Source of the DNA: a candidate division WOR_3 bacterium SM23_42
GTDB lineage: Bacteria; Hydrothermota; Tepidihabitantia; SM23-42
Direction of reading: 5' to 3'
Assembly: GCA_001303785.1 (NCBI GenBank)
Contig: LJUJ01000009.1
Location: 43,569-107,568 of the forward strand
DNA: 64,000 nucleotides
The notes under the pieces are model-generated. The model was not told the DNA's origin. It did no database searches and saw nothing but the letters and a program-made list of their open reading frames with translations. Shown here piece after piece: positions 778 to 49,990 of this stretch (position 1 is the first letter of the stretch; each line of letters begins with the position of its first letter). A program made the translations under genes and the position numbers.

Positions 778-940
778 ATGGTGTTTGATAAACACAATTT
801 CTACCCATTTAGAGGTCAGCTTCGCTACCTTCTCATTCATCCACTGCTGACAAGGGCGGTAGCTTAGATATCAGAAACTCTGATAACTTTGGATCTCATT
901 ATCATTTTTAAGTACGAAACGTATTAGGAGATAATTGGGT

Positions 941-2053
941 ATGGGTTTAATAGAAATGAGTAGTGAACAAAAGTTGATTAAGAGTGAAGTCAAGAAATTT
1001 ACCAATGCTGAACTCGAACCGATAGCTTCAGATATCGAGAAAGATTGTCGTTTGCCATCAGAAATCCTAAAGAAGTTGGCGCAGATGGGCTTATTTGGAT
1101 TGACAATACCTGAGAAATACGGGGGTTCAGGATTGGACGCATCGAGCCTTTCTATCGCACTCGAAGAATTTTCGAAATCCTGCGCCTCACTAGGTTTGAT
1201 ATTAGTGGTGAACAATTGTATTGTTGCTAATCTTCTCACAAGATATGGTTCGCCACAAATCAAGGAAGAGTATCTGAAGCGAATATCGCAAGGGGGCATT
1301 GGTGGTTACGGGCTCTATTCGGACACCGAAATTGCTGGCAAGACGAATGCGCTGATTGCTGAGAAGGATAATCTTCATTTCTCGGGCCGAATAGACCTTG
1401 TACTGAATGGCGGTGCCGCTGACTTTTGTATCATTCCCGTGAAGTCTGAGCGGGGCATTGTTTTGCACCTAGTCAACCGAGATGCCGCCGGTATAAATTA
1501 CGTTCCGGTTGAGACCATGGGCATGCGCAGCGCAGGTATCACTAGCCTTGAATTCCAAGGTGTGAAACTCGGGACAGAGAGTTGCTTGGTAGGCGAAGAC
1601 GGCGGTCTTGAGGCAATCCAACGCGCACACGATTTTGCGCACATCGGCTATGCGGCAATTGCACTTGGTTTAACCGAGGCTTCGTTGGAGGCGTCGATTA
1701 AGTATGCGAAGGAACGCAGGCAGTTTGGCCGAGCCATCTGTGAGTTCCCGATGATTCAAGACATACTCGCAGAAATAAAGATTTGCATCGAGAAATCCCG
1801 GTTGCTCGTCCACGACGCTGCACATCGATTCGATAAAGAAGAGGGCTACGGGATGATTGTCCGTATTGCTTGTTTGACAAGCTGTGGGGGTGCCGTGTCT
1901 GCCGCACTTAAGGCAATACAAATTCACGGCGGGTACGGCTATACAAAGGACTACCCAGTTGAGCGCTACTTCCGAGATGCGAAATCGATTCAGCTATTGG
2001 GTGAATCGCCGGTTGATCTAAGAGCTAAAATCGCAAAGGAGCTTCTAGTATGA
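941..2053 (+). CDS. Acyl-CoA dehydrogenase family protein, divergent paralog
   Basis: ORF 935..2053; ATG at 941 follows AGGAG at 926-930. ACAD-like N-terminus (PEKYGGSGLD) and C-terminus (IQIHGGYGYTKDYPVERYFRDAK). The GLTEPxAGSD motif is degenerate (GLYSDTEIAGK). The stop overlaps the next gene's start (ATGA). Confidence 0.75.
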   Translation: MGLIEMSSEQKLIKSEVKKFTNAELEPIASDIEKDCRLPSEILKKLAQMGLFGLTIPEKYGGSGLDASSLSIALEEFSKSCASLGLILVVNNCIVANLLTRYGSPQIKEEYLKRISQGGIGGYGLYSDTEIAGKTNALIAEKDNLHFSGRIDLVLNGGAADFCIIPVKSERGIVLHLVNRDAAGINYVPVETMGMRSAGITSLEFQGVKLGTESCLVGEDGGLEAIQRAHDFAHIGYAAIALGLTEASLEASIKYAKERRQFGRAICEFPMIQDILAEIKICIEKSRLLVHDAAHRFDKEEGYGMIVRIACLTSCGGAVSAALKAIQIHGGYGYTKDYPVERYFRDAKSIQLLGESPVDLRAKIAKELLV

Positions 2054-3186
2054 TATTGGATGAAAAACACGAGGAATTCCGAGCCAGGATTAGGGATTTT
2101 GCAACGCGAGAAGTGGAGCCACGATCCCGGGAATTGGACAGGAAAGGCGAATTTCCCTGGGATTTGGTAAAACGCATGCGCGAACTAGGACTTTTGGCGA
2201 TCTACGTTCCGAAAGAATACGGGGGTGCCGGTCTTGATACGCTGTACTATTCCATCGCCGTTGAGGAGATCGGACGCGTTTGCGGTTCCACCGGCATATT
2301 CCTTGCTGCCCATTCGTCGCTTGGTGTTTTCCCGGTGTATTACGCAGGAAATGAAGCACAGAAGAAGAAGTGGCTTGTACCAATGGCCAAAGGTGAAAAA
2401 ATCGGCTCGTTCGGGTTGACCGAACCGGATGCTGGTTCTGATGCCGCAGCTACCAAGACTACTGCGATTCAGGAAGGCGATGAATATGTAGTTAATGGTG
2501 TAAAAAGATTCATAACCTCGGGTAGTGTTGCCGATGTAATAGTCTTCACCGCGACACAAGATCCGTCAAAAGGTTATCATGGCATATCCGCTTTCGTTGT
2601 GGAAAAGGGAACGCCCGGTTTTACCTATGGTAAGGATGAAGAGAAATTAGGCCTGCACGGATCGATAACTTCGGAGCTCCTTTTTGAGGATTGCAGGATT
2701 CCGAAAGGGAATATCCTGGGTAAGGAAGGAGATGGGTTTAAGATCTTTATGGAGACCCTGGACGGCGGTAGGATTTCTATTGGTGCGCTGGCCCTTGGTA
2801 TAGCGCAGGGAGCGTTAGATGCATCGGTTGAGTTTGCCAAGCGCAACAAGCGAGCAGGTAAACCCATTTACAAGGCACAGTCAACACAGTCCATGATTGC
2901 GGAGATGGCAACCGAGGTCGAAGCGGCTCGTTTGCTTGTTTATCAGGCAGCGGCGTTGAAGGACGCTGGCCTCCCATATTTAAAGGAAGCAGCAATGGCA
3001 AAATACTATGCTTCAACGATCGGCATGAAAGCGGCGAGCATGGCTATTGAAATTCATGGTATGCTTGGCATTACGGATATGTATCCTGTGGAGCGCTTCA
3101 TCAGGGATGAAAAACTCATGGAAATAGGTGAAGGAACGAGTGAGATTCAGAAGATAGTCATCGCGAGACAAATACTAGGCAAATAA
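2050..3186 (+). CDS. Acyl-CoA dehydrogenase (short/branched-chain, butyryl-CoA dehydrogenase-like)
   Basis: 378 aa with canonical ACAD motifs: GLTEPDAGSD, KRFITSG, IEIHGMLG, PVERFIRDEKLMEIGEGTSEIQ. Confidence 0.9.
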   Translation: MILDEKHEEFRARIRDFATREVEPRSRELDRKGEFPWDLVKRMRELGLLAIYVPKEYGGAGLDTLYYSIAVEEIGRVCGSTGIFLAAHSSLGVFPVYYAGNEAQKKKWLVPMAKGEKIGSFGLTEPDAGSDAAATKTTAIQEGDEYVVNGVKRFITSGSVADVIVFTATQDPSKGYHGISAFVVEKGTPGFTYGKDEEKLGLHGSITSELLFEDCRIPKGNILGKEGDGFKIFMETLDGGRISIGALALGIAQGALDASVEFAKRNKRAGKPIYKAQSTQSMIAEMATEVEAARLLVYQAAALKDAGLPYLKEAAMAKYYASTIGMKAASMAIEIHGMLGITDMYPVERFIRDEKLMEIGEGTSEIQKIVIARQILGK

Positions 3187-3277
3187 ATCCGAAGCACGAA
3201 ATCCGAAATACTAAACAATATCAAATAACCAAAGCACTAAATTCAAAACCGTTTTGAGCATTTGAATTTCGAATTTC
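3185..3277 (+). repeat. Intergenic palindromic element, copy A (right arm truncated)
   Basis: AAATCCGAAGCACGAAATCCGAAATACTAAACAATATCAAATAACC...AAATTCAAAACCGTTTTGAGCATTTGAATTTCGAATTTC. It shares the left arm with copies B-H and begins inside the TAA stop of the upstream gene. Confidence 0.8.
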
Positions 3278-3295
3278 TGAGAGTAAGGGGGTATT

Positions 3296-4438
3296 ATGAA
3301 CTTTGATCTGACCAGTGATCAGAAAATGCTTCAGGATCAGGTACGTAAATTTGCAGACACTGAATTAGCACCGGTAGCACCGGAAATCGACCAATCCGCG
3401 GAATTCCCGTGGGAGAACATAAAGAAGATGGCTAAGTTGGGCTTGCTCGGGGTGGTCGTGCCCGAGAAATATGGCGGCTCCGAATTCGATTTTGTATCCC
3501 TGGCAATCGCGATCGAAGAGATATCGCGGGTTTGCGCTAGTACTGGGGTCATTGTCGCGGTTAACAATTCATTGACCACCTATCCTATTCTGCAATTCGG
3601 TAACGAGGATCAGAAGAACAAATTTCTGCCACCCTTGTGCAGCGGCGAGAAGATCGGCGCCTTTGGTCTGACAGAGCCAAATGCGGGTTCGGATGTTGTG
3701 GCCATGGAGGCGACTGCCCGGCCCGAGGGAGATCATTATGTGCTCAACGGCACGAAGAGGTTCATCACCAATGGCGGTGAGGCTGGAATCTTTGTTGTGT
3801 TTGCTTACACTAACAAGGAATTGAAACACAAAGGTATTAGTGCTTTCGTTGTCGAGCGTGATACTCCGGGATTCACTCTTGGCAAGCACGAAGACCTCAT
3901 GGGTATCAGAGCGACCGCGAACTGTGAGCTGATATTTGAAGACACAAAGATCCCGAAGGAGAACCTACTCGGGAATGAGGGTGATGGCTTCAAGATTTGT
4001 ATGAACACGCTCGACGTTTCGAGAATAGACATCGGAGCTCAGGCTGTTGGCATTGCGCAGGCTGCGTTGAATGAGGCGATAAAATACTCGAAAGAGCGCA
4101 AGGCATTCGGGCAGCCGATATGTAACTTCCAGATGATCCAATCGATGTTTGCGGAAATGGCGACCGAGATTCAGGCGGCTCGTTTACTCGTTTACTATGC
4201 GGGTTATTGTAAGGATAAGGGTATGCCAAGGTTTTCCCGGGAATCGGCAATGTGCAAATACTATGCATCGAGTATCGCGGTCGACGTGGCACGCAAGTCG
4301 TTACAGATTCATGGTGGTTATGGATACACAAAGGATTATACAGTCGAGCGATTGTATCGAGATGCTAAGATTCTTGAGCTTTACGAAGGTACGTCGGAAG
4401 TACAGAAGATCGTGATTGCAAGAGATCTCACTAAGTAA
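3296..4438 (+). CDS. Acyl-CoA dehydrogenase (short-chain type)
   Basis: 380 aa with motifs GLTEPNAGSD, KRFITNGG, LQIHGGYGYTKDYTVERLYRDAKILELYEGTSEVQ. RBS AAGGGGG lies upstream. Confidence 0.9.
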   Translation: MNFDLTSDQKMLQDQVRKFADTELAPVAPEIDQSAEFPWENIKKMAKLGLLGVVVPEKYGGSEFDFVSLAIAIEEISRVCASTGVIVAVNNSLTTYPILQFGNEDQKNKFLPPLCSGEKIGAFGLTEPNAGSDVVAMEATARPEGDHYVLNGTKRFITNGGEAGIFVVFAYTNKELKHKGISAFVVERDTPGFTLGKHEDLMGIRATANCELIFEDTKIPKENLLGNEGDGFKICMNTLDVSRIDIGAQAVGIAQAALNEAIKYSKERKAFGQPICNFQMIQSMFAEMATEIQAARLLVYYAGYCKDKGMPRFSRESAMCKYYASSIAVDVARKSLQIHGGYGYTKDYTVERLYRDAKILELYEGTSEVQKIVIARDLTK

Positions 4439-4559
4439 ATCCTAAGCACGAAATTCGAAATCCGAAACAATACCAAATGACCAAAATACGAAAATCCAAA
4501 CGTTTTGAAAATTCGGATTTAGAATTTGTTTCGTATTTAGATATTCGGATTTAGGATTT
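4437..4559 (+). repeat. Intergenic palindromic element, copy B (full length)
   Basis: AAATCCTAAGCACGAAATTCGAAATCCGAAACAATACCAAATGACC...GTTTTGAAAATTCGGATTTAGAATTTGTTTCGTATTTAGATATTCGGATTTAGGATTT. The termini AAATCCTAA / TTAGGATTT are exact reverse complements. It starts in the TAA stop and ends 8 nt before the GGAAGGAGG RBS of etfB. Confidence 0.85.
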
Positions 4560-4580
4560 TTCAGTAGGAAGGAGGTAACA

Positions 4581-5351
4581 TTGGAGTTGATTGTCTGCAT
4601 TAAGAGAGTTCCTCAGACCGCGGAAGCCGAAGTGAAAATAGATGATTCGGGAAAGGATATCGTGAAAGATCGCTTGACCTTTGATATGAACGAAGCAGAT
4701 TCTTACGCACTTGAAGAAGCAATTCTATTAAAAGAAAAATTCGGCGGTGCGATAACTGCAGTTTCTCTTGGTACCGCTGAGGCTGAGGATACGCTGCGCA
4801 TCGCATTGGCGAAAGGCGCAGATAATGCTATCAGAATAAAGGCGGAGGAATTTGGCGAATTGGATGGGTACAAGACCGCGATGATAATCAAGGAAGCGAT
4901 AAAGGATCTCAAGTTCGACGCGATTTTCACAGGGTGCATGGCAACGGATGATAGCTATTATCAGGTAGGCCCGGTGCTGGCGGAGACACTCGGAGTTCCT
5001 CACGCTACACTGGTGAGCAAGATCGAGTTGACTGACAAGAAGGTTCACGTGAATCGGGAACTCGAAGGAGGTTTGATAGAGCACCTTGAGATGTCGTTGC
5101 CAGCGGTCTTCGCAGTACAGACCGGCATCAACGAACCACGCTACGCCTCGCTGATTGCGATAAGACGAGCAGCAGCAAAAGAGATAAAAGTGTTAGGTAA
5201 AGATGACATTGCATCTGAGCCCAAACTCAACAGCACGCTTGAAGAACTCTTTGTACCTCCAGTTGGCAAAAGGGCTGAGTTTCTTACCGGTACGGCGGAC
5301 GAGGTATCTGCCCGGACAGCGGAGATAATCAAAGAAAAGGGATTGATCTAA
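4581..5351 (+). CDS. etfB: Electron transfer flavoprotein, beta subunit
   Basis: 256 aa. TTG start follows GGAAGGAGG. N-terminus IVCIKRVPQT and the overall layout are typical of EtfB. It lies directly upstream of etfA. Confidence 0.9.
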   Translation: MELIVCIKRVPQTAEAEVKIDDSGKDIVKDRLTFDMNEADSYALEEAILLKEKFGGAITAVSLGTAEAEDTLRIALAKGADNAIRIKAEEFGELDGYKTAMIIKEAIKDLKFDAIFTGCMATDDSYYQVGPVLAETLGVPHATLVSKIELTDKKVHVNRELEGGLIEHLEMSLPAVFAVQTGINEPRYASLIAIRRAAAKEIKVLGKDDIASEPKLNSTLEELFVPPVGKRAEFLTGTADEVSARTAEIIKEKGLI

Positions 5352-5357
5352 GGAGGA

Positions 5358-6335
5358 ATGATGGCTGATATTCTAGCGTTGGTTGAACATCGTCAGGGTA
5401 CAATCAGGGACATAACATACGAGCTGTTGACCTACGGACGAAAATTGACCGAAAAGACGGGTGGCAAACTTACGGGTGTAGTATTAGGGCATAATACCGA
5501 CAGATACACAGAGACTCTAAAGAAACACGCGCATCGTCTTGTTGTTGTTGACCATGAGGTATTTAAAGACTTCAATGCGGAAACGTATCAAGTTGCTCTT
5601 GTTGATATCATCAAAAAAGAGAATCCGTTTCTCACATTGATTGGCAATACTGCATTTGGAATAGACCTCTGTCCGGCCCTTGCGACGAAATTGGATATTC
5701 CGTTTACCACCGATTGCATTGGTGTTGAGATCGCTGATACGAGAGTTAAATTGACCCGTCAGTTGTATGATGGAAAGATGGATGCTCACGTGCGTCTGAG
5801 CGACAGTTCCTCATACATGCTGACCTTGCGCAGTGGAACCTGCGCTGCCGAAGAGGGGAGCCTCGCCGCAGAAATACAGAAGATAGATGCCCCAGTGACC
5901 AATCAGCCTGATTACAAGAAATTCATTGAGTACATCGAAGCGGCGGTCGGTGACGTGGATATCACAAAGGCCGACGTGCTGGTTGGTGTCGGGCGCGGGA
6001 TAAAAGAACAGGCGAATTTAGCAATGATTGAGGAATTTGCTAAGGCAATGGGCGGGGTGGTTGCTTGCTCGCGTCCGATCGTTGATGCCAACTGGTTACC
6101 CAAGGATCGTCAGGTCGGGTCTTCGGGCAAGACCGTGAAACCCAAGCTCTATATTGCGGTGGGTATTTCGGGAGCATTCCAGCACATCGCCGGGATGAAA
6201 AGCGCAGATACCATAATCGCCATCAATAAAGATCCAAATGCACCAATATTCAATGAGGCCGATTATGGCATTGTTGATGACCTATTTAAGGTAGTACCGG
6301 CACTCAAGAACAAGATAATGGAGATGAAACAATAA
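5358..6335 (+). CDS. etfA: Electron transfer flavoprotein, alpha subunit
   Basis: 325 aa with the C-terminal FAD-binding signature PKLYIAVGISGAFQHIAGMKSADTIIAINKDPNAPIF. Confidence 0.9.
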   Translation: MMADILALVEHRQGTIRDITYELLTYGRKLTEKTGGKLTGVVLGHNTDRYTETLKKHAHRLVVVDHEVFKDFNAETYQVALVDIIKKENPFLTLIGNTAFGIDLCPALATKLDIPFTTDCIGVEIADTRVKLTRQLYDGKMDAHVRLSDSSSYMLTLRSGTCAAEEGSLAAEIQKIDAPVTNQPDYKKFIEYIEAAVGDVDITKADVLVGVGRGIKEQANLAMIEEFAKAMGGVVACSRPIVDANWLPKDRQVGSSGKTVKPKLYIAVGISGAFQHIAGMKSADTIIAINKDPNAPIFNEADYGIVDDLFKVVPALKNKIMEMKQ

Positions 6336-6337
6336 CC

Positions 6338-9300
6338 ATGAAGAGAGTAGGTGTTTTCATTTGCCATTGTGGTCGAAACATAAGCGGCACGATAGATATT
6401 GAGAAATTGGTGAAAGAGATAAGCAAACATCCAGGAGTCGCACATTGCGAGGATTACAAATACATGTGTTCTGACCCCGGTCAGAGTATCGTTAAAGAGA
6501 AACTGAAAGAAAACAAGCTCGATGGCATTGTCGTGGCCTCCTGTAGTCCGTTGCTCCATGAGATAACCTTTCGCCGTGCCGTGGAAGAAGCGGGGTTGAA
6601 TCCCTATTTGTTGGAAATGGCGAACATCAGGGAACAATGCAGTTGGATCCATGATGATATTGAGAAGGCAACGCAAAAGGCGATTGAGATAATTAAGGCA
6701 ACGGTTGAGAAGGCCAAGTACAATGATGCTTTGGTGCCGGCTAAGATTCCGGTTAATCCACGGGCATTGATACTCGGTGCCGGTATTGCGGGAATCCAGG
6801 CTGCGTTGGACGTTGCCAACGCCGGATATGATGTAGTATTGGTTGAGCGTAGCCCCTCGATCGGTGGACACATGGCCCAACTATCTGAGACATTTCCAAC
6901 GCTGGACTGTTCGCAGTGCATCCTTACTCCTAGAATGGTTGAAGCCGGTCACCATGAGAAAATAAAACTGTACACCTATGCAGAATTGGAAGAGGTATCT
7001 GGTTCGGTCGGCAACTTTCGGGTCAAAATAAGAAGGAAGGCATCGTACGTTGATTTTAAAAAATGCAACGGCTGCGCGGATTGTGACCCCGTGTGTCCCG
7101 TGTTGATGCCCAATGAATTCGATGCGCATCTGTCACAGAGAAAGGCGATTTACCGACCGTTCCCGCAAGCGGTGCCAAATACCTACACTATCGATAAGAA
7201 GGGCGTGCCGCCGTGTCGTGTAGCGTGTCCAGCAGGTGTTAATGTACAAGGCTACGTCGCACTCGCCTCCCAAGGGAAATTCAAGGAAGCACTGGCAATT
7301 GAAAGAGAGGATAACCCCTTTGCTTCGGTATGTGGTCGAGTATGTACGCATCCCTGCGAGAGCGAATGCAAGAGAGGCGACTTTGGAGATGCCGTTTCCA
7401 TTCGGTCAATAAAGCGTTTTATTGCCGACCATGAAACGCAGATACCCGAACCTGATTTGCCCGAGCCGAGGAAGAATAAGATAGCAATCATTGGCGCTGG
7501 GCCGTCGGGGCTAAGTTGCGCATACTTCCTGGCAAAGCGGGGATATGCACCCACCGTGTTTGAAGCGCTGCCCGTTGTTGGTGGGATGTTGATCACCGGG
7601 ATCCCCGAGTTCAGACTTCCGAGGAAAATGCTCCAACAGGACATTGACTATATCAAATCCTGGGGTGTTGAGATCAAAACCGAACATAAGATAGATGATC
7701 CGGAAGGACTCCTCGAAAATGGTTATGAGGCGGTGTACTTGAGTAGTGGTGCTCATATCGAACGTAAATTAGGTATCGAAGGCGAAGACCTGGAAGGTGT
7801 GTACTACGGTATCGATTTTCTTCGCAGGGTGAACCTTGACGATAAACCCGAAATCGGTGCTAGGGTGGCCGTTGTCGGTGGTGGTAACTCAGCTATCGAT
7901 GCGGCACGGACCGCACTAAGGTCAGGTGCTGAGCAGGTGAGCATTGTATACCGGCGTTCTCTCAAAGAGATGCCCGCCGACAAGGATGAGATTGATGAGG
8001 CAATAAAGGAAGGAATTGAAATCAAATTCCTCGCAACCCCAACCGCGTTCATTGGCGAAAACGGCAAGCTGAAGCAGATGCAATGCGTTCACATGAAGCT
8101 CGGCGCACCCGATGAGTCAGGACGTCGCCGGCCAGAGCCGATTATGGGATCCGAGTTCACAATTCCGGTCGACACCGTGGTGGTGACGATTGGTCAGTCT
8201 CCTGATATCGCCTACTTGTCAAAAGACACGAAGATCGAAACGAGCAAGTGGGGTAGTCTCATTGTGGATGATCTGACACGGCAGACGTCGGTTCCCAGAA
8301 TATTCGCAGGCGGTGACGCGGTGCGCGGCCCGGATACTGTGATCTGGGCGATTGCGGACGGTAAGGAGGCAGCAGTCTCCATCGATCGCTTTCTGCGTGG
8401 TGTCGATCTAACTGAAGATCGTACAAAGCCTGAAGCCATCGAGGATATAGCGCTGCCGCGTATCATCAAGGATACTGCGCGACAACAGGTGCGCATGATG
8501 TCGCTTACTGAACGAGCTAACAACTTCAAGGAAGTAAATCTTGGCCTGACCGAAGAGCAGATCAAGGCCGAAGCCTTAAGGTGTTTTGCTTGCGGTGGCT
8601 GTATCGAGTGTGGTGAGTGCAATAAGGCCTGCGAGCAGGATGCGATAAGACATGATATGAAGGACGAAGTGGTCGAGGAGGAAGTTGGTGCGATAGTTGT
8701 TGCAACGGGATATGAGTTGTATCCGATTGAAAAGATTCGTGAGTATGGTGCTGGTAAATTTGAGGACGTGATCGACGGTCTGCAGTTTGAGCGCCTGCTT
8801 TCGGCCTCCGGGCCTACCCAAGGTGAAGTCCTCAGACCATCTGATAAGAAGGTGCCCAAGAGGATCGCCTTCATCTCTTGTGCAGGGTCGCGTGATCCCG
8901 AACATCATCTACCGTACTGTTCAAAAATATGCTGCATGTACAATGCAAAGCACGCCTTGCTCTATAAGGAACGGGTGCCCGATGGCGAGGCTATCGTTTT
9001 CTCGATAGATATCAGGACAGCGGGTAAAGGCTACGAGGAATTCTTCATACGGACAAAGGAAGATGAGAATGTCCTGTATGTTCGCGGTAAGCCTTCACGA
9101 GTCATGAAGGAAGGCGATGAATTGGTCGTATGGACTACCGATACGCTGACCGGGCGTCCGCTCAAGGTTAAGTGTGATATGGTTGTACTCTCGATGGCGG
9201 TTGTACCTTCGATTGAGACTTTTGAACTTGCCAAGAAATTGAGAATTCAGACAAATATACATGGGTTTTACAACGAGGCACATCCCAAACTGCGTCCGGT

Positions 9301-9670
9301 TGAATCGTTGGTTCCCGGGTTCTTTTTGGCTGGCTGTGCTCAAACGCCAAAGGACATTCCGGAGACAGTTGCTCAAGCATCCGCAGCTGCTGCCAAGGTT
9401 CTGGAGATGTTTTCGAAGAAAGAAATATCTGCAGAACCGATGGTCGTGGCGATTGACGAAGATATGTGTAGTGGCTGTAAGCTATGTGTTATTACATGTC
9501 CTTATGAAGCACGCGAGTTCGATGAAGAAAAGAATATTGTTAAGATAAATGAAGCATTATGCATGGGATGTGGTTGTTGTGTTGCAGCATGTCCGAGTGG
9601 AGCTTCACAACAGAAGAATCTGGTAGAGGAACAGATCTCAAGAATGGTGGAGGTAATCCTTGGCGAATAA
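6338..9670 (+). CDS. HdrA-like flavo-iron-sulfur protein with an inserted GltD/NfnB-like NAD(P)H-binding module
   Basis: 1110 aa. HdrA N-terminal domain (VGVFICHCGRNI...YKYMCSDPGQ...ASCSP). HdrA FAD fold (ALILGAGIAGIQAAL...LDCSQCILTP). First ferredoxin motif CNGCADCDPVCP. A GltD-like insert at about nt 7202-8400 (CRVACPAGVNV, CGRVCTHPCESEC, IAIIGAGPSGLSCAYFL, VAVVGGGNSAIDAA, RIFAGGDAV). The HdrA fold then resumes (CFACGGCIECGECNKAC ... CSGCKLCVITCP, CMGCGCCVAACP). Confidence 0.8.
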   Translation: MKRVGVFICHCGRNISGTIDIEKLVKEISKHPGVAHCEDYKYMCSDPGQSIVKEKLKENKLDGIVVASCSPLLHEITFRRAVEEAGLNPYLLEMANIREQCSWIHDDIEKATQKAIEIIKATVEKAKYNDALVPAKIPVNPRALILGAGIAGIQAALDVANAGYDVVLVERSPSIGGHMAQLSETFPTLDCSQCILTPRMVEAGHHEKIKLYTYAELEEVSGSVGNFRVKIRRKASYVDFKKCNGCADCDPVCPVLMPNEFDAHLSQRKAIYRPFPQAVPNTYTIDKKGVPPCRVACPAGVNVQGYVALASQGKFKEALAIEREDNPFASVCGRVCTHPCESECKRGDFGDAVSIRSIKRFIADHETQIPEPDLPEPRKNKIAIIGAGPSGLSCAYFLAKRGYAPTVFEALPVVGGMLITGIPEFRLPRKMLQQDIDYIKSWGVEIKTEHKIDDPEGLLENGYEAVYLSSGAHIERKLGIEGEDLEGVYYGIDFLRRVNLDDKPEIGARVAVVGGGNSAIDAARTALRSGAEQVSIVYRRSLKEMPADKDEIDEAIKEGIEIKFLATPTAFIGENGKLKQMQCVHMKLGAPDESGRRRPEPIMGSEFTIPVDTVVVTIGQSPDIAYLSKDTKIETSKWGSLIVDDLTRQTSVPRIFAGGDAVRGPDTVIWAIADGKEAAVSIDRFLRGVDLTEDRTKPEAIEDIALPRIIKDTARQQVRMMSLTERANNFKEVNLGLTEEQIKAEALRCFACGGCIECGECNKACEQDAIRHDMKDEVVEEEVGAIVVATGYELYPIEKIREYGAGKFEDVIDGLQFERLLSASGPTQGEVLRPSDKKVPKRIAFISCAGSRDPEHHLPYCSKICCMYNAKHALLYKERVPDGEAIVFSIDIRTAGKGYEEFFIRTKEDENVLYVRGKPSRVMKEGDELVVWTTDTLTGRPLKVKCDMVVLSMAVVPSIETFELAKKLRIQTNIHGFYNEAHPKLRPVESLVPGFFLAGCAQTPKDIPETVAQASAAAAKVLEMFSKKEISAEPMVVAIDEDMCSGCKLCVITCPYEAREFDEEKNIVKINEALCMGCGCCVAACPSGASQQKNLVEEQISRMVEVILGE

Positions 9671-10853
9671 GAAGAACATAGTGGCCGAGATTAACCCTGA
9701 AATCAGGGAGGCCCTTGTAGAAATGGGGGCAGTCGATGCATACAAGTGTTATCAGTGTGGTAAATGTGCCAGCGTATGCCCATGGTTTCAGGTTGGAACG
9801 TATGAATTCCTCGTCTTCAGATTTCCTCTGGAAACAGTACTCGGCTTGATCGCGAGCAGCGAAGATAAAGAAGAACTGGCAAAGGAGGTCGACAAGATAT
9901 ACCGTTGTGTCGGATGCGAAGCATGTGTCGATCAGTGCCCATTGGGTGTGAAGATACCCGACATCCTGAGATCAGCAAGAAGAATATTAGTTGATTTCGG
10001 ATCCTATCCTGAGACGCTCAAGTCCGTAGTGCAGAAGATTCGCAACGTGGGGAATCCCTTGGGCGAACCGCGTGAAACCCGTGGTGATTGGGCAAAAGAG
10101 CTGAACGTCGAGACCTACTCTGCAGATAAGGAATTATTGTACTTCCCATGCTGTATACCATCATATGATGACCGCATAAGCCGTGTCGCTAAAGCTACTT
10201 CGCTCATACTGAAACATGGCGGGGTATCCTTTGGTATTCTTGGAACGAGAGAGAGTTGTTGTGGTGAGGCAATACGAAGAGCTGGTGCCGAGACAGTGTT
10301 TAATGAAACTGCGAAGGCTAATATACAAGCATTCACGGAAGTTGGCGTCAAGCAGATACTCGTGAGCTCTCCGCACTGCTATGTTACATTCAGTAAAGAG
10401 TATCCCGAGCTTGGTGGCAGCTTCGAACCACTACACACTACGCAATATTTTTGGCAGCTCATTGAGAACGGTAAGATCCGACCAAACAAAAGTTATGAGA
10501 AGAAGGTTGTCTATCATGATCCATGTACTTTAGGACGCCAGAGCGGGGTCTACGAAGAACCGAGGAATATTCTGAAAAGCATTCCCGGGTTGGAATTACT
10601 GGAGGTTGATGATTTCTCGCGTAACCTGAGTCTTTGTTGTGGCGCGGGGAGTGGTGCGCTCTGGATCGATTGGCCAAAAGGCGAACGCATGGCGGACATA
10701 CGAATTAAACAATTAGTCGACACAGGTGCGGAAGTCATTGCGGTTGCGTGTCCTTACTGTCTGCAAATGTTCGAGGAAACTGTGAAGGCAATGAATATCG
10801 ATATTACAGTAATGGATGTTTGCGAAATACTACACGAGTCATTGAGTGGGTAG
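9660..10853 (+). CDS. HdrD-like (Fe-S)-binding protein: 2x[4Fe-4S] ferredoxin domain plus two CCG cysteine-rich domains
   Basis: 397 aa. TTG start is 6 nt after GGAGG and overlaps the previous gene by 11 nt. Motifs CYQCGKCASVCP, CVGCEACVDQCP, two CCG motifs (ESCCGEAIRRAG, LSLCCGAGSG) and ACPYC. No obvious TM segment. Confidence 0.75.
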   Translation: MANKKNIVAEINPEIREALVEMGAVDAYKCYQCGKCASVCPWFQVGTYEFLVFRFPLETVLGLIASSEDKEELAKEVDKIYRCVGCEACVDQCPLGVKIPDILRSARRILVDFGSYPETLKSVVQKIRNVGNPLGEPRETRGDWAKELNVETYSADKELLYFPCCIPSYDDRISRVAKATSLILKHGGVSFGILGTRESCCGEAIRRAGAETVFNETAKANIQAFTEVGVKQILVSSPHCYVTFSKEYPELGGSFEPLHTTQYFWQLIENGKIRPNKSYEKKVVYHDPCTLGRQSGVYEEPRNILKSIPGLELLEVDDFSRNLSLCCGAGSGALWIDWPKGERMADIRIKQLVDTGAEVIAVACPYCLQMFEETVKAMNIDITVMDVCEILHESLSG

Positions 10854-10859: not shown

Positions 10860-12347
10860 ATGAAACTCAAATCACTCGTAGGCAGATTACCGGCTGAACA
10901 AGATCTCAGTGTTAAGCCGAGGCCTTATTTGAACCATTCAGTGGAGTTGAAAAAGCTCTTCACGGCTGAAGAACGTGCGGACATGTTGGAGAAAGTTGGG
11001 TTGAATGTTTTCTTTTTTCCGTCGGAGATGATCACTGGCTGTGATTTGCTCTCTGACTCAGGAGTCACGACCATGACCAGCGAGCAATGGGCAGCGCTAC
11101 ACTTGGGCGATGAGGCATATGGCTCGAATCGGGGATATTTTTTGCTGAAAGATCAGATTCGGGCTAGTTTTGGTGAAGCGTTCTTTAACGAACCTGGTGT
11201 AGGCGACTCCAATGCCTTCATCTTTCATCAGGGCCGGGCGAGTGAAGACGCCCTGTTTACGCAATTGGGTAAGCTAGGTGTTGGTCAAATAATCCCTAGC
11301 AATGGTCATTTTGACACAACGGGCGCGAATATTGAGGCCAACAAGATGCAGGCTGTCAACCTGTTTTCCGAAGAATTGCTCGAGTCCGACACAAACGTCC
11401 GTTTCAAGGGTAATATGAACATAAGGAAGCTAAAGGCGCTGCTTGAGAAGTCTCACGACCGTATTCCCCTTGTATATTTGACGGTAACCAACAATACGGC
11501 AGGCGGACAACCGGTATCCATGGCAAATATCAAAGAAGTCTCACAGATCGTTCATGGTTATGGTATTCCGCTATTCTTTGATGCCTGTCGGTTTGCTGAA
11601 AACGCCTGGTTCATCAGGAATTATGAAAGTGGCTACAAAGACAAAGACGTGGCGATCATTGTTCATGAGATGTTTTCGCATGTTGACGGTTTCACAATCA
11701 GTTACAAGAAAGATGGTCTGGTCAATATGGGTGGCGGGTTGTTTTTGAGAAACAATGGTTTGTTCACAAAGAAATATCCAAAAATGCCCGGCGCGATTGT
11801 TGGTTATCAAATAATAAAAGAGGGGCACCCAACGTACGGTGGGCTTTCCGGCCGGGATATCATGGCCCTCGTTGTTGGCTTGCGATTGGTTACTCGTGAT
11901 GAATATTTGACTTATCGGATTAATCAAGTTTCCGAGTTTGGTGAAGAGATGCACCGCCAAGACATTCCCGTTGTGAGACCCGTGGGCGGCCACGCTGTCT
12001 ATGTTGATGTTAACAAGTTTTTTCATGATACGGCTATGGGACCGGAGGATTTCGGCGGTGTTGCTTTGTGCGCGATCTTACTCGCTGGATATGGCCATAG
12101 GGCATGCGAACTTGGATATTTTAGTTTTGGGCATTTTGACAGAGAGACAGGAAAGGAGGTCCTGCCTGAGGTTAATTTCGTACGTTTCGCGGTACCCAGG
12201 CTTCGGTACGAGAAACAAGATTTAGACTCTGTCGTTGCGGCGTTGAAAGTCTTGCATGAATGCCGGAAAGAAGTTCCAGGCGTGCAAGTGACGTATGGCC
12301 GAGAACTTCCTTTGCGTCATTTCAAGGCACGGTTTGAATTCAAGTAG
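10860..12347 (+). CDS. Beta-eliminating lyase family PLP enzyme (tryptophanase / tyrosine phenol-lyase-like)
   Basis: 495 aa with motifs DLLSDSGVTTMT, YLTVTNNTAGGQPVS, FFDACRFAENAWFI and the PLP-lysine context SYKKDGLVNMGG. Confidence 0.75.
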   Translation: MKLKSLVGRLPAEQDLSVKPRPYLNHSVELKKLFTAEERADMLEKVGLNVFFFPSEMITGCDLLSDSGVTTMTSEQWAALHLGDEAYGSNRGYFLLKDQIRASFGEAFFNEPGVGDSNAFIFHQGRASEDALFTQLGKLGVGQIIPSNGHFDTTGANIEANKMQAVNLFSEELLESDTNVRFKGNMNIRKLKALLEKSHDRIPLVYLTVTNNTAGGQPVSMANIKEVSQIVHGYGIPLFFDACRFAENAWFIRNYESGYKDKDVAIIVHEMFSHVDGFTISYKKDGLVNMGGGLFLRNNGLFTKKYPKMPGAIVGYQIIKEGHPTYGGLSGRDIMALVVGLRLVTRDEYLTYRINQVSEFGEEMHRQDIPVVRPVGGHAVYVDVNKFFHDTAMGPEDFGGVALCAILLAGYGHRACELGYFSFGHFDRETGKEVLPEVNFVRFAVPRLRYEKQDLDSVVAALKVLHECRKEVPGVQVTYGRELPLRHFKARFEFK

Positions 12348-13016: not shown

Positions 13017-13865
13017 ATGTCTAATAATATGCAGGACATCAAGCATGAGAAAATAGAAGACATGCTGGTGGCGTACATTGCAGCGCGCGGTACGTTTGAA
13101 GACTCGCCCCCGAAATGGATGTCGAGATTCAATGTATTGAGGGAATCCTGTGAGGGCCTTATCTGTGGCTCAGCCATGGCATTGTACGATTACGGAGTGT
13201 ACACGAAAGGTGTACATGTAGACTTGTGTTATCCGGTCACAGAACGCGTGGAGTCGGATGATATTAAGAGCAAAATTATCGAAGGAGTCGAAGTCCTGTC
13301 GCTCACTCACTATGGTCTGTACGAAAAGATGGGCGAGACCTACAAAAAGCTCTACAGTTTCATGAGAGAGCATGAGGTGGTGCCGACTGCTTATGGCCGA
13401 GAGGTGTATCTGGAATACCATGCCGATGAGCCGGAAAGGAATGCTACCGAATTGCAGGCAGTGCTGCACAAATGGGAAACTCGGTTCGCACGACACGTAG
13501 AGCGCGTGCTCGGCTTGAAGGCGAGGGAAGCGGTAATGAAGGACAGCGATTTGTTGTACACCATCGAATCGACTGCTCACGATAAGGCAAAGTGGCTGAA
13601 GGCGGCGATGGAGACGTTGGATGGTTTGACCGATGAAGAACAGAAATTCGAAATACTTTCTTGCTGTGCTCACGAATTTTCTGATAGGCGTACTGCAAAG
13701 CTGCGTGCTGTTTATAAAGAAGCAGGAAATATCGAAGCAGTCATTAAGTTTATGCATGAAGACCCTGATTGGTATGACTGGAAGAGGGCATATCGCCGAC
13801 GTTCTGCTACTGCGGAACTGGTTGGTACCGACAGTACTGGGAAGGTGTACTGGGTGAACCAGTGA
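13017..13865 (+). CDS. GyrI-like effector-binding domain fused to a cysteine-rich domain paralogous to 13979..14665; the 3' end appears frameshifted (true tail continues in another frame to 13933)
   Basis: The N-terminal ~150 aa look GyrI-like (VAYIAARGTFED...LSLTHYGLYEKMGETYKKLYSFM...REVYLEY). The C-terminal part aligns with the next gene (EILSCCAHEF vs EIMTRCACEYP). The conserved tail ISPTFCYCGTGWY...VKIEVLKSLLKGDDHCELAIHLP is encoded at 13787-13933 in the -1 frame. Confidence 0.6.
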   Translation: MSNNMQDIKHEKIEDMLVAYIAARGTFEDSPPKWMSRFNVLRESCEGLICGSAMALYDYGVYTKGVHVDLCYPVTERVESDDIKSKIIEGVEVLSLTHYGLYEKMGETYKKLYSFMREHEVVPTAYGREVYLEYHADEPERNATELQAVLHKWETRFARHVERVLGLKAREAVMKDSDLLYTIESTAHDKAKWLKAAMETLDGLTDEEQKFEILSCCAHEFSDRRTAKLRAVYKEAGNIEAVIKFMHEDPDWYDWKRAYRRRSATAELVGTDSTGKVYWVNQ

Positions 13866-16719: not shown

Positions 16720-17661
16720 ATGGATATGATAATTGAAGGACTACAGCAGCGATTGAGTAGTGTTGATTTTAAGAATGCTGTTGTTTCTACTCGACACTTA
16801 CCCGAGCTTCGGCGTGACTTTGAGAAACTCCTTGAAGAGAAATCACTGGATAGAAATTTCTACGATGAGATTGTATCGCGTTATGGTCTACAGTGGCATT
16901 TCGACCCCCCGGACACCATCCCCCCCGCTAAATCCGTGATAATTACTGCCACACCTCAGCCCAAGGTTAGTTTAGAATTCCTACTCTCTGGCAAGGGATA
17001 TTACGCTATTATTCCGCCTACCTATGTACATGATACGGACAAGAAGGCAGCCGATGTAATTTCACGGTACTTAAGCGAGCACGGCTATGAGGTCTGTGAT
17101 GCATTACTTCCGACAAAACTTCTGGCTGTGCGCAGTGGTCTAGCAAGATATGGAAGGAACAATATTACATACATTGATAATTGGGGAAGCTATCATAGAT
17201 TGAGAGCGTTCTTTTCGGATATGCCGTGCGATGATGATTGTTGGCAGGAACCGGTAGCGATGGAATTATGCAACACGTGTACGACATGCCTGAAAGAATG
17301 TCCTACGAAGGCTATCCAGCAGGATAGATTTCTGGTGAATGCAGGGAAGTGTTTGACTTTTTTCAATGAAAAAGCTGATGAGTTCCCCCAATGGTTTGAC
17401 CCTGAGTGGCATAATTGTCTCATAGGTTGTATGATATGCCAAGATATGTGTCCAGCCAACAAAGATCATACTGCTTGGATTATGCCGGGCGGGGAGTTCT
17501 CAGAAGAAGAAACGGTGATGATACTCGATGGTGTATGCAAAGACAAGCTCCCTTCGAGGACTATTGAAAAACTGACAAATGTGTGTATGCTCGAGGAATA
17601 TGATTTGCTCAGGAGAAATCTGAGCGTGTTGATAAACAAACAGAAAAGATCTAAGACATAG
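16720..17661 (+). CDS. 4Fe-4S double-cluster protein, epoxyqueuosine-reductase (QueG)/reductive-dehalogenase-like
   Basis: 313 aa with CNTCTTCLKECPTKAI and CLIGCMICQDMCPANK cluster motifs. Family placement is tentative. Confidence 0.5.
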   Translation: MDMIIEGLQQRLSSVDFKNAVVSTRHLPELRRDFEKLLEEKSLDRNFYDEIVSRYGLQWHFDPPDTIPPAKSVIITATPQPKVSLEFLLSGKGYYAIIPPTYVHDTDKKAADVISRYLSEHGYEVCDALLPTKLLAVRSGLARYGRNNITYIDNWGSYHRLRAFFSDMPCDDDCWQEPVAMELCNTCTTCLKECPTKAIQQDRFLVNAGKCLTFFNEKADEFPQWFDPEWHNCLIGCMICQDMCPANKDHTAWIMPGGEFSEEETVMILDGVCKDKLPSRTIEKLTNVCMLEEYDLLRRNLSVLINKQKRSKT

Positions 17662-21565: not shown

Positions 21566-22486
21566 ATGGATAAGATATCTCGAAGGGAGTTCTTGATTAG
21601 AGGAGCCGCTATGGGGCTTGCATATGCGGGTTTGGGGCTAATCTCAACGCCGAATATTTTAGAAGCAGTGACTGAGCCAGCTCCTTTAGGTACGTTAGAC
21701 TTAGCCGTAGCCAAAGGAGGCGACCCTGCCAGTAATACACTAAAGGCTATTCAAGCCTTGGGCGGCATCGAAAGATTTGTCAAGAAGGGCTACAAAGTAG
21801 CGCTGAAGCCCAATTGTCTTGCGGCGAACCCGCCTGAAATAGGATCAACCACTAATCCCGCTGTGATGGAGATAGTGGTGAAGATGTGTCTGCAGGCTGG
21901 CGCCCGTGAGGTGGTGGTAGTAAGCCATGACCCCGAAAGAAGTTTTCAGATCAGCGGAGTCATGGAGGCATGTTCTATGGCTGGAGCGAGGGTGGTAGCT
22001 GCAAACAGTAGAGACCTTTATCAAAGTGTACCCGTGCTACGAGGGAGATTGCTTCAGAATGTTGAGATTATCAAAGAAATTTTGGATGCAGATGTGTTTG
22101 TTAATATACCGATTGCCAAACACCATAGTCAGACAGGCTTGACGCTTAGTATGAAAAATCTGATGGGCATTAATTGGGACCGACGCTATTTTCATCTGAA
22201 TGGACTGGATCAAGCCATTGCAGATTTGAGTACTGTGCTTAGACCCCACCTTATTGTTATGGACGCTAATAGAATTCTATTGACCAATGGTCCAGGTGGG
22301 CCTGGTCAAACCAGGGATACGCAAACTGTCATCGCTGGGACCGATCAAGTTGCTGTTGATGCCTATTGTACCACCCTTTTCAATAGGACTCCCCAAGAAA
22401 TACGGCACATTCAGTATGCATATGAACTAGGCGTGGGCGAGATGGACCTGAAGAATCTCAACATCAAGGAAATTTCTGTGAATTGA
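21566..22486 (+). CDS. DUF362-domain protein with twin-arginine (Tat) signal
   Basis: 306 aa. Tat-like N-terminus SRREFLIRGAAMGLAYAGLG. DUF362-like core (ALKPNC...AKHHSQTGLTLSMKNLMG). Confidence 0.65.
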   Translation: MDKISRREFLIRGAAMGLAYAGLGLISTPNILEAVTEPAPLGTLDLAVAKGGDPASNTLKAIQALGGIERFVKKGYKVALKPNCLAANPPEIGSTTNPAVMEIVVKMCLQAGAREVVVVSHDPERSFQISGVMEACSMAGARVVAANSRDLYQSVPVLRGRLLQNVEIIKEILDADVFVNIPIAKHHSQTGLTLSMKNLMGINWDRRYFHLNGLDQAIADLSTVLRPHLIVMDANRILLTNGPGGPGQTRDTQTVIAGTDQVAVDAYCTTLFNRTPQEIRHIQYAYELGVGEMDLKNLNIKEISVN

Positions 22487-32580: not shown

Positions 32581-32670
32581 TGGATAGAATACTAAAATGA
32601 TTTGTTTTATGTTTGGAACTTGTGATTTATTGGTGATGCGGTATTTGAGATTTGTAGTTTTGGAGGTTTG

Positions 32671-34218: not shown

Positions 34219-34343
34219 CCAGGAGACGCAGGAGCGCTCTGCTTGCATGAAACGCAGTACCGCTGCGTTCGCAGGACACGCTGATATGAACCGAAGACGA
34301 TACTGCGAATCCCGTAGGGGTGATACTGCATTATTAAGGAGTT

Positions 34344-35843: not shown

Positions 35844-35844
35844 G

Positions 35845-46957: not shown

Positions 46958-46965
46958 TCGATCGC

Positions 46966-47094
46966 AAATCCGAAGCACTAAATCCGAAATTCGAAACAAT
47001 ACCTAATGACCGAAATCCAAAATTCTAAACTGTTTTGAAAATTGGGATTTGGAATTTGTTTCGGATTTCGATATTAGGATTTCGTATTTAGAAT
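46966..47094 (+). repeat. Intergenic palindromic element, copy D
   Basis: AAATCCGAAGCACTAAATCCGAAATTCGAAACAATACCTAATGACCGAAATCC...TGTTTTGAAAATTGGGATTTGGAATTTGTTTCGGATTTCGATATTAGGATTTCGTATTTAGAAT. Confidence 0.85.
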
Positions 47095-47106
47095 GAAGGG
47101 GGTTTG

Positions 47107-47436: not shown

Positions 47437-47473
47437 TTAGCGAGTTTACATAAGAGTTAAGGGGGTGTTTCCC

Positions 47474-48265: not shown

Positions 48266-48303
48266 CATGCGGTATCGCTATGCTCGCAGGAAACGCGCCG
48301 TGA

Positions 48304-48435: not shown

Positions 48436-48439
48436 AAAA

Positions 48440-49942: not shown

Positions 49943-49990
49943 TGCGGTTGTTGTGGATAATTATCATTCGCCTCAGCAGGTAGGCATAAA

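Follow-up and report, generated by a model that had tools for sequence, protein, structure and literature searches.

A conserved etfB-etfA-hdrA-hdrD cassette of candidate division WOR-3, predicted to encode a soluble HdrA-based outlet for electron-transferring flavoprotein

Four adjacent genes of the candidate division WOR-3 bacterium SM23_42 (contig LJUJ01000009.1) encode both subunits of an electron-transferring flavoprotein (ETF), an HdrA-like protein of 1110 aa, and an HdrD-like iron-sulfur (FeS) protein of 397 aa. They occupy positions 4581-10853 of the window, the 64,000-nt stretch of DNA that was analyzed. Its conservation as a genetic module is well supported, and its enzymatic role is predicted. 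With moderate confidence we lean towards the reading that one soluble complex re-oxidizes ETF without a quinone, the flavin of HdrA confurcating the electrons of ETF and ferredoxin onto NAD(P)+. Re-oxidation of ETF at about 0 mV is the hardest redox step in the anaerobic oxidation of fatty acids and branched-chain amino acids. Its known outlets are either membrane-bound (ETF:quinone oxidoreductase, EtfD/EMO with reverse electron transport, and FixABCX) or consist of a bifurcating ETF run in reverse. A soluble outlet based on HdrA would, if true, be a different answer to this step.

All four genes lie on the + strand, with coordinates given as whole-window positions and domains assigned from Pfam and NCBIfam. 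The first, etfB (4581-5351, 256 aa), opens with a TTG start behind a GGAGG Shine-Dalgarno sequence and carries an ETF domain. It is followed by etfA (5358-6335; 325 aa, or 324 aa if the second ATG is used), ETF and ETF_alpha domains being assigned across the Etf pair, by the gene of the 1110-aa protein (6338-9670), and by the gene of the 397-aa protein (9660-10853). Successive genes are spaced by 6, 2, and -11 nt, and 142 nt separate etfB from the last of three acyl-CoA dehydrogenase (ACAD) genes upstream. Shine-Dalgarno sequences are good for etfB and for the 397-aa gene. Independent gene calls on three matching metagenome contigs yielded an identical gene set and agree with the open reading frames (ORFs) on the tight packing behind three ACAD genes that a model-made first-pass annotation of the sequence had described. 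The same annotation had reported no segment of transmembrane length in either Hdr-like protein. This was reproduced with 19-residue Kyte-Doolittle means at a threshold of 1.6, where the 1110-aa protein peaks at 1.54, inside a cysteine-rich ferredoxin motif, and the 397-aa protein, which has no N-terminal extension, at 1.18. The same counter gave four to seven segments in membrane-type homologs, which served as the positive control.

The 397-aa protein reads as a soluble version of an ETF-oxidizing module, given its affinity to EtfD, the histidine that it keeps, and the absence of a membrane domain. Pfam and NCBIfam assigned it a dicluster ferredoxin domain, which would hold two [4Fe-4S] clusters, and two CCG domains. 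Its top solved match by sequence is EtfD of M. smegmatis (9OJN; E 1.4e-56, aa 75-395 against 404-745), while HdrC comes second and matches the N-terminal part only (E 8e-11). Foldseek ranked 9OJN (E 3e-21) before LutA (5e-13) and HdrB (about 2e-6) for an AlphaFold (AF2) model whose confidence (mean pLDDT 67, below 50 for aa 22-137) lets the CCG half alone support the fold comparison. The cysteines of the HdrC-like 2x[4Fe-4S] part span C30-C40 and C83-C93. Those of the first CCG motif are C165 (EtfD C503), C200C201 (EtfD C538, T539), and S237-P-H239-C240 (EtfD C581-P-H583-C584). The second CCG motif is complete (C289, C326C327, C364xxC367) and fully kept relative to 9OJN. The SPHC motif was invariant in 13/13 and 19/19 aligned homologs, including distant proteins of Syntrophorhabdus and Syntrophobacterales. 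Only nine cysteines of the CCG motifs are invariant, the tenth, C164, being nearly so, and Ser237 and His239 are invariant as well. The ten cysteines in two CX(31-39)CCX(35-36)CXXC motifs and the open coenzyme M (CoM)/coenzyme B site of catalytic HdrB/HdrD were not found, and the protein appears to be of the electron-transfer type, not the heterodisulfide-cleaving type. Both the SPHC motif and the closeness to EtfD speak against a heterodisulfide or DsrC partner, which is considered unlikely. The thiol/disulfide that the first-pass annotation had offered as a possible second redox partner is likewise disfavored by the nine invariant cysteines, the serine in place of one ligand, and the EMO/EtfD histidine.

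EtfD/EMO is a membrane ETF:(methyl)menaquinone oxidoreductase and an experimentally shown ETF oxidase, in which a cytoplasmic HdrBC-like part takes the electrons of ETF at its non-cubane clusters and a histidine occupies the former CoM site (PMC13083937; bioRxiv 10.64898/2026.08.18.745454). The 397-aa protein shares with 9OJN, the EMO of Syntrophus aciditrophicus, and 'HdrF3' of D. autotrophicum an HdrC-like 2x[4Fe-4S] part and two CCG motifs in a single polypeptide, the histidine at the former CoM site, and a gene beside etfAB. It differs in lacking the five-helix heme-b membrane domain, the quinone site, and the disordered C-terminal tail, and its gene is translationally coupled to that of HdrA. 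Moreover, EtfD of M. smegmatis has CTG and Cys581 where the window protein has CCG and serine. The earlier view that the module is unlike the membrane FeS oxidoreductases paired with ETF holds as far as the membrane domain is concerned, but the 397-aa protein is homologous to the cytoplasmic half of EtfD/EMO. By analogy with these enzymes, it is predicted to accept electrons from reduced ETF.

The 1110-aa protein appears to be an intact HdrA with an internal GltD/NfnB-like insertion, i.e., of the HdrL type, and not an end-to-end fusion. HdrA2 matches were placed at aa 3-298 and approximately 754-1108, with a GltD/NfnB-type NAD(P)-binding module at 283-780. Against HdrA of M. thermolithotrophicus (5ODC_A), aa 3-288 align to 5-291 and aa 755-1105 to 293-647, and 466 residues (aa 289-754) stand where 5ODC HdrA has one residue. 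The insertion point lies between both CxxCxxCxxxC motifs of the "inserted ferredoxin domain" of HdrA (C243-C253 and C755-C765). Both parts of the HdrA::GltD chimera proposed earlier are thus present, in a different arrangement from a fusion of two whole proteins.

The N-terminal HdrA part (aa 1-288, 6338-7201) holds the N-terminal cluster domain (C9, C11, C44, C69 and others), the GxGxxG FAD motif at 147-152 (GAGIAGIQ, 147-154), TLDC191SQC194, and the first cysteine motif of the inserted ferredoxin domain (C243, C246, C249, C253). The insertion (aa 289-754, 7202-8599) begins with a Fer4_20 domain (291-368), whose 2x[4Fe-4S] cysteines are C293, C297, C332, C336, C340, and C344, and continues with FAD and NAD(P)H Rossmann folds (Pyr_redox_2, 381-675). 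Its match to PRK12771 reaches 546 bits over a cut-off of 516, and its best solved relatives are 9BOV, 8OH5, the Bfu-type NfnA 9N5U, NfnI-L (5JCA, chain L), and NfnB (4YLF, chain B). These Pfam, PRK12771, and PDB matches agree with the earlier assignment of the module to the NAD(P)H-binding type. A nearly invariant 'YRRS' motif (aa 538-541) follows the second Rossmann strand and resembles NADPH-specific GltD/NfnB enzymes, which we take to be a hint at the cofactor. The C-terminal HdrA part (aa 755-1110, 8600-9670; aligned to 5ODC_A 293-647 and 8RVU_a 301-655) carries the second cysteine motif C755-C765, the remaining TrxR-like FAD domain, and the C-terminal 2x[4Fe-4S] ferredoxin domain. The HdrA cluster motif CxGSRD-x(6-8)-CSxxCC is present as C848AGSRD...YC861SKIC865C866. 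The set of HdrA cofactor motifs is complete, comprising the N-terminal cluster, FAD, and both ferredoxin domains, of which the inserted one is split and keeps both cysteine motifs. Nearly the whole chain aligned to methanogen HdrA at an E value of about 1e-200. The NCBIfam HdrA equivalog scores were not reached (809.9 vs 1100 bits for NF040770 HdrA2 and 585.9 vs 1400 for NF041778), and the protein appears to be akin to both equivalogs yet a member of neither. One polypeptide thus combines HdrA with a GltD/NfnB-like FAD/NAD(P)H module bearing two [4Fe-4S] clusters, which is the HdrL architecture. The ORFs near the cassette and their Pfam assignments included no NfnA/PyrK-like partner with a [2Fe-2S] cluster and a second FAD, as needed for Nfn-type bifurcation.

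The ETF of the window resembles non-bifurcating ETFs. The top solved relative of EtfB is 1O94_C, the AMP-containing, non-bifurcating ETF of Methylophilus methylotrophus (E 4e-40), with CarD next (5.8e-32), and EtfA has no N-terminal ferredoxin domain. The zipper of EtfB reads DGDTAQ in bifurcating ETFs (G 95%, T 100%) and DDD(S)NQ in canonical ones, and the GGADTxATS region holds T94/T97 of RpaETF, whose loss swaps the bifurcating FAD for AMP (PMC8958531). The zipper of the window EtfB is DDSYYQ (aa 123-128), and that of cassette orthologs DD[GAS]Y.Q. The T94/T97 region, placed by alignment and by reading of PMC8958531, is FGELDGYKTAM (GELDGYKTA vs GGADTxATS). The first threonine is replaced by glycine or alanine in the seven closest EtfB orthologs (64-82% identity) and by glycine, alanine, serine, asparagine, or proline in more distant ones. 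As a positive control, the same motif procedure found bifurcating-type EtfB in the loci L030, L103, L145, L147, and L152. The classification of EtfAB by EtfB alignment, suggested in the first-pass annotation, thus ended with both bifurcating signatures missing, and a bifurcating ETF was rejected for the window on this ground. Metagenomes also hold a separate ETF-Hdr gene order, HdrA-MvhD-HdrD-like-EtfA-EtfB (L103, L139, L147, L152, also L113), in which EtfB has bifurcating-type motifs (GGADTLAT; zipper with G and T). Judged by these motifs, such loci would hold two potentially bifurcating flavoproteins per cluster.

Gene-neighborhood surveys were carried out for both Hdr-like proteins. Among 80 loci of HdrA/HdrL relatives in species-representative genomes, MvhD was found in 62 and HdrC-HdrB in most. 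ETF adjoined HdrA/HdrL in only six loci, of which L011 (same lineage as the window), L071 (Cloacimonadota), L038, and L074 have co-directional ETF genes, while ETF lies divergently on the opposite strand in L030 and L014. Linkage to ETF as a property of HdrA::GltD proteins as a class was rejected on these counts, most loci having the order HdrC-HdrB-HdrL-MvhD. The best 120 clusters of 397-aa homologs were all 358-405 aa long and came from WOR-3, Marinimicrobia, and Cloacimonadota, among other sources. Four of these homologs with 64-70% identity were sampled, and all four lay in etfB-etfA-hdrA-hdrD cassettes. The Marinimicrobia locus (L091) comprises three ACADs, EtfBA, a 1111-aa HdrL, the HdrD-like protein, MeaB, a mutase, and a carboxyltransferase. 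A Cloacimonadota locus (L092) has EtfBA, a plain 650-aa HdrA, the HdrD-like protein, a carboxyltransferase, a hydratase, and biotin carboxylase. L093 has the same genes followed by an ACAD, CoA-transferase A/B, and HMG-CoA lyase, which completes the full leucine/isovalerate pathway. The fourth (L094) combines three ACADs, EtfBA, a plain 646-aa HdrA, the HdrD-like protein, MeaB, a mutase, and genes like those of propionyl-CoA carboxylase (PCC). The order ACAD-etfB-etfA-hdrL-hdrD was also found in a complete WOR-3 genome.

More distant homologs of the 397-aa protein (32-63% identity) were surveyed at 80 metagenome loci, where the counts are minima because many contigs are short. The 62 loci with soluble homologs held HdrA in 41, ETF in 23, and both in 15 cases, while the 18 loci with membrane-type homologs held HdrA in none, ETF in five, and both in none. 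In a rough neighbor-joining distance tree of the HdrA parts, drawn with no support values, the ETF-linked HdrAs of WOR-3, Marinimicrobia, Cloacimonadota, and L094 formed one clade in which insert-bearing and plain forms were mixed. ETF linkage goes with the soluble HdrD-like protein and the HdrA clade that accompanies it, and does not depend on the GltD insertion. The mixed clade and the cassettes indicate that the conserved unit is ETF, the soluble EMO-like protein, and HdrA, with the GltD/NfnB insert being optional. Chance adjacency was rejected because the arrangement recurs across several phyla. Hence, the co-occurrence of HdrA::GltD with etfAB and ACADs proposed for a survey in the first-pass annotation was confirmed for the cassette, but not for HdrA::GltD proteins at large.

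HdrL paralogs with 58-64% identity and no ETF linkage were also seen. In TA06 DG_78 (L004/L005, 7440-13731), a GcvH-domain protein, HdrC, HdrB, HdrL, and MvhD lie directly 5' of rpsF-ssb-rpsR-rplI. In a Stahlbacteria metagenome-assembled genome (L002, 7826-16146), a CCG protein, HdrL, fumarase, and citrate synthase stand beside a NiFe hydrogenase. These differing contexts suggest that HdrL serves as an NAD(P)H-linked unit that can be combined with several different high-potential partners. The two ETF-linked loci of Syntrophorhabdus (L074, 7140-18672) and Syntrophobacterales (L038, 5499-17254) have the order hdrD-like-etfB-etfA-hdrL-mvhD. In these metagenome-assembled genomes, the HdrL-like region is divided between two reading frames, with ORFs of about 904 and 568 aa, and the first ORF begins at the FAD motif without the N-terminal HdrA domain. 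Downstream of MvhD come two FeS proteins, a one-CCG protein, and another HdrA-like protein, which makes this a larger and differently built ETF-Hdr cluster.

Under the confurcation reading, short or branched acyl-CoAs would be oxidized by the three ACADs, and the electrons would reduce an ETF of the canonical one-FAD type, which would dock at the non-cubane-cluster (CCG) end of the EtfD/EMO-like protein. The two cubane clusters of this protein would relay the electrons to HdrA by way of its high-potential arm. The FAD of HdrA would then join one ETF electron (~0 mV) with one low-potential electron of reduced ferredoxin (Fd), and the pair would exit at intermediate potential via the GltD/NfnB-like insert to NAD(P)+. 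The predicted net reaction is acyl-CoA + Fd(red) + 2 NAD(P)+ -> enoyl-CoA + Fd(ox) + 2 NAD(P)H. It would be reversible in principle and would amount to the Bcd-EtfAB reaction run backwards, except that the bifurcating flavin would sit in HdrA and not in EtfB. In Hdr complexes, bifurcation takes place at the flavin of HdrA, which passes the high-potential electron to HdrC/HdrB-type clusters and whose ferredoxin domain reduces external ferredoxin. GltD/NfnB modules shuttle electrons between NAD(P)H and FeS chains. By analogy, we infer that an HdrA-type protein performs bifurcation or confurcation here, and the same holds for complex formation, ferredoxin as the third partner, the assignment of the HdrA arms, the preference for NADPH or NADH, and the physiological direction. 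Per leucine, valine, or isoleucine, 2-oxoacid:ferredoxin oxidoreductase would reduce one ferredoxin and the ACAD would reduce one ETF, which fits a 1:1 confurcation ratio. Together with the catabolic context, this stoichiometry argues for the oxidative direction. The reaction could plausibly be pulled by consumption of the enoyl-CoA, through ATP-driven carboxylation or hydration, and by removal of H2 or formate, which would keep NAD(P)H/NAD(P)+ low.

Several points weigh against this reading. Confurcation is endergonic under standard conditions and needs low NAD(P)H/NAD(P)+ and product removal. Cassettes with a plain HdrA of ~650 aa carry no NAD(P)H module, so that NAD(P)H cannot be the universal third partner, and these cassettes must draw their third partner in trans or use another. 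The inserted ferredoxin domain reportedly carries the low-potential electrons in methanogen HdrA, and with a GltD-like module inside this domain the wiring may differ from the scheme. No gene for ferredoxin, 2-oxoacid:ferredoxin oxidoreductase, Rnf, or hydrogenase was found in the cassette. Lastly, EtfA scores about equally against bifurcating (CarE, C. difficile EtfA) and non-bifurcating structures, and the classification of ETF rests on two motifs. By these the window ETF appears non-bifurcating-like, though this is not airtight because the KRVPQT N-terminus of EtfB resembles that of bifurcating ETFs.

Some of these points favor other explanations. The same complex could run reductively, with NAD(P)H bifurcated at HdrA to ferredoxin and, through the HdrD-like protein, ETF, and ACAD, to enoyl-CoA, which would make it an energy-conserving enoyl-CoA reductase like Bcd-EtfAB or CarCDE. 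The ACADs and Etf subunits indeed match acryloyl-CoA reductase AcrABC best in NCBIfam, although under the cut-offs, and the reductive direction is exergonic under standard conditions according to the thermodynamics of Bcd-EtfAB (PMC5861303). However, the conserved neighbors are carboxylases of the methylcrotonyl-CoA carboxylase (MCC) and PCC types, HMG-CoA lyase, CoA-transferase, B12 mutases, hydratases, and thiolases of leucine, valine, and isoleucine catabolism. No 2-hydroxyacyl-CoA dehydratase or other enoyl-CoA-generating gene of a reductive branch was seen in the window or the loci, and reductive operation is considered unlikely. The catabolic context also bears on a soluble NAD(P)H:ETF oxidoreductase without bifurcation, in which electrons would flow downhill from NAD(P)H to ETF by way of the GltD module, the HdrA clusters, and the HdrD-like protein, with no part for ferredoxin, since the catabolic flow of electrons would be uphill and drivable by coupling only. 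This explanation would suit a cassette without a ferredoxin gene. HdrA homologs with such roles exist (the sHdrA-like 6TJR of a sulfur oxidizer is among the matches), and GltD modules are plain NAD(P)H inputs in many enzymes (DPD and GltD are among the matches). Yet the full HdrA cofactor set with both ferredoxin domains, the closeness to bifurcating HdrA, and the plain-HdrA variant without any NAD(P)H module make it improbable.

Bifurcation could also reside in ETF itself, as in FixAB, with the HdrD-like protein and HdrL serving just as a high-potential acceptor like FixCX. EtfA is about equally near to non-bifurcating ETF and to the bifurcating CarE and C. difficile EtfA, the EtfB N-terminus resembles that of bifurcating ETFs, and L103, L139, L147, and L152 combine bifurcating-type EtfB motifs with HdrA-MvhD-HdrD. 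On the other hand, DGDTAQ and GADTxATS are missing in the window EtfB and in all cassette orthologs, the best solved EtfB relative is of the AMP type, and there would be no need for HdrA as a further bifurcating flavoprotein or for another NAD(P)H site, so that this arrangement is quite improbable. Finally, HdrL and the HdrD-like protein might form an NAD(P)H-dependent (hetero)disulfide or DsrC-type reductase, with the adjacency of etfAB reflecting co-regulation only. A link of HdrL to DsrC or heterodisulfide-type acceptors has been proposed for D. autotrophicum and S. fumaroxidans (PMC2702500, PMC5947623), and most surveyed HdrL loci have HdrCB and MvhD without ETF. The presence of only nine invariant CCG-motif cysteines, Ser237, and His239, at the position that in EMO/EtfD blocks the CoM site, speaks against it, as do the far greater closeness of the 397-aa protein to EtfD than to HdrB and the etfBA cassette order kept across phyla. 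Neither DsrC nor MvhD was found in the window, and a disulfide reductase is judged very improbable.

The confurcation reading sets the cassette apart from known systems to different degrees. MvhAGD-HdrABC and other HdrABC complexes (5ODC, 7BKB, 8RVU) share the HdrA cofactor motifs and a partner with HdrC-like and HdrB-like parts. They differ in that the HdrB/HdrC equivalents of the window are fused and of the EMO electron-transfer type, the window HdrA has a 466-aa NAD(P)H insert, and no MvhD, hydrogenase, or formate dehydrogenase takes part. The predicted high-potential partner is ETF instead of a heterodisulfide. HdrL was named in Desulfobacterium autotrophicum and detected in Syntrophobacter fumaroxidans proteomes (PMC2702500, PMC5947623), in line with the earlier statement that HdrA-NfnB-like proteins occur in sulfate reducers (PMC2702500). 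These HdrLs have the same HdrA and GltD-like NAD(P)H parts in one soluble protein, but mvhD follows them, hdrABC, dsrABC, or fdh are linked to them, and there is no ETF linkage (PMC2702500, PMC5947623). The window HdrL is instead flanked by etfBA and the EMO-like gene and lacks the mvhD/hdrBC/dsr/fdh context. Bcd-EtfAB, CarCDE, and Ldh-EtfAB have the same predicted overall reaction and ACAD and EtfAB components. Their bifurcating flavin is a second FAD in EtfB, whereas the window EtfB lacks the signatures and HdrA provides a separate flavin. In class II benzoyl-CoA reductase, the HdrA-like BamE hands the high-potential electron to the HdrD-like BamD, in which the heterodisulfide site is blocked and the distal cluster has a Cys-to-Ser change. 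The Bam complex feeds a tungsten benzoyl-CoA reductase from the NuoF-type BamGHI, and ETF is not involved.

Full-text literature searches, which did not reach subscription-only literature, returned no biochemical or genomic description of a soluble ETF-linked HdrA module, and as to biochemistry this agrees with the first-pass annotation. The papers returned were limited to genome and proteome mentions of HdrL, work on membrane EMO/EtfD, and annotations of membrane ETF/"Fe-S reductase" in syntrophs. All components belong to known families (ETF, EtfD/EMO-type HdrD, HdrA, and HdrL), and their soluble ETF-linked combination appears to be new. We tentatively suggest that etfB-etfA-hdrA-hdrD could represent an unrecognized HdrA-based confurcating class with ETF as the high-potential substrate. 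This class might be a general quinone-independent ACAD outlet in fermentative or syntrophic candidate phyla (WOR-3, Marinimicrobia, Cloacimonadota, and others), with an interchangeable third partner, either built in as the GltD/NfnB insert or supplied in trans. If true, this would explain how uncultured fermenters and syntrophs that abound in sediments and digesters can have complete leucine/valine/isoleucine and propionyl-CoA pathways and would make ETF a new substrate class for Hdr-type bifurcating enzymes. It would also give a first testable function to HdrL-type proteins, which have been known since 2009 from genomes and proteomes only. The cassette is compact, with four genes and apparently all products soluble, and is therefore amenable to heterologous expression and cryo-EM.

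The three ACAD genes upstream of etfB are also on the + strand. ACAD1 (935-2053, 372 aa) is a divergent paralog whose Pfam middle domain is below the cut-off and which has 'LGESP' in place of the catalytic 'YEGT' of ACAD3. It overlaps ACAD2 (2050-3186, 378 aa) by 4 nt. All three Pfam domains are present in ACAD2, whose top NCBIfam matches are short-chain ACAD and acryloyl-CoA reductase types, all under the equivalog cut-offs. ACAD3 (3296-4438, 380 aa) was assigned from Pfam and NCBIfam. ACAD1 and a partner may form a heteromeric ACAD of the alpha2beta2 type with one non-catalytic subunit. The trio of one divergent and two normal ACADs is kept 5' of the cassette in L091 (Marinimicrobia) and L094, where the stretches corresponding to window 935-3186 are 1-1612 and 838-3053, respectively, while ACAD1 is shortened to 153 aa in the WOR-3 genome L001.

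Further downstream, an island of acyl-CoA catabolic genes (28628-55822, + strand) was annotated by Pfam on the identical contigs L009 and L010 and mapped back to the window ORFs. It holds MeaB, two MM_CoA_mutase genes (methylmalonyl/isobutyryl-CoA-mutase family), a B12-binding subunit, a glyoxalase-family (epimerase-like) protein, a CoA-transferase/hydrolase, two enoyl-CoA hydratases, 3-hydroxyacyl-CoA dehydrogenase, and thiolases. Two complete sets of carboxyltransferase, biotin carboxylase, and biotin carboxyl carrier protein are present. The PCC-like set (32668-36336) lies with the mutase, MeaB, and epimerase-like genes and the MCC-like set (45350-50497) with an enoyl-CoA hydratase. Judged by these annotations, the window appears to encode the oxidation of branched-chain amino acids and short acyl-CoAs along with the processing of propionyl-CoA. 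The genes flanking the cassettes (MCC-like carboxylase, enoyl-CoA hydratase, HMG-CoA lyase, CoA-transferase, B12 mutase, and PCC-like genes) likewise point to oxidative leucine, valine, and isoleucine degradation. No HdrB or second HdrA was found in the 64-kb window. The island genes are co-directional with the cassette and also include a thiolase with a DUF35 protein, an HMG-CoA-synthase-like gene, BirA, and cobalamin adenosyltransferase.

A promoter-like TTGACA-16 nt-TATAAT sequence (750-777, + strand; 12/12 consensus match) lies 158 nt 5' of the ACAD1 gene and, from this consensus match alone, is a possible operon promoter. No terminator-like site was found by consensus matching in the intergenic gaps from 935 to 10853, which, together with the promoter site, fits a single operon. 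The tryptophanase/beta-eliminating lyase family gene (10860-12347, + strand, 495 aa; PRK13238 489 bits, over the cut-off) starts 6 nt after the HdrD-like gene and is also present in the WOR-3 relative L001. MeaB and the B12 mutase occupy its position in L091 and L094, and it is a lineage-specific neighbor outside the cassette core.

The nearest named relatives of the 1110-aa protein belong to candidate division WOR-3, the best with 81% identity in the complete genome CP070802.1. The window sequence recurs in several metagenomes on contigs of up to 188 kb. The metagenome contigs L006-L008, otherwise 99.9-100% identical to the window, have an additional 130 nt after window position 13777 and 68 nt at 18363, which in L006 are the stretches 17441-17570 and 22157-22224, respectively. 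Through the 130-nt difference, a GyrI-like/DUF6144 gene that encodes 348 aa in these contigs is left with an ORF of 282 aa in the window (13017-13865), and the 68-nt difference falls within an Rce1-like gene. Both could be strain variants or assembly differences. GC skew is above 0 in every 2-kb bin of 1-64000 and nearly all long ORFs are on the + strand, so that the 64 kb apparently belong to one replichore and show a strong bias of genes towards one strand.

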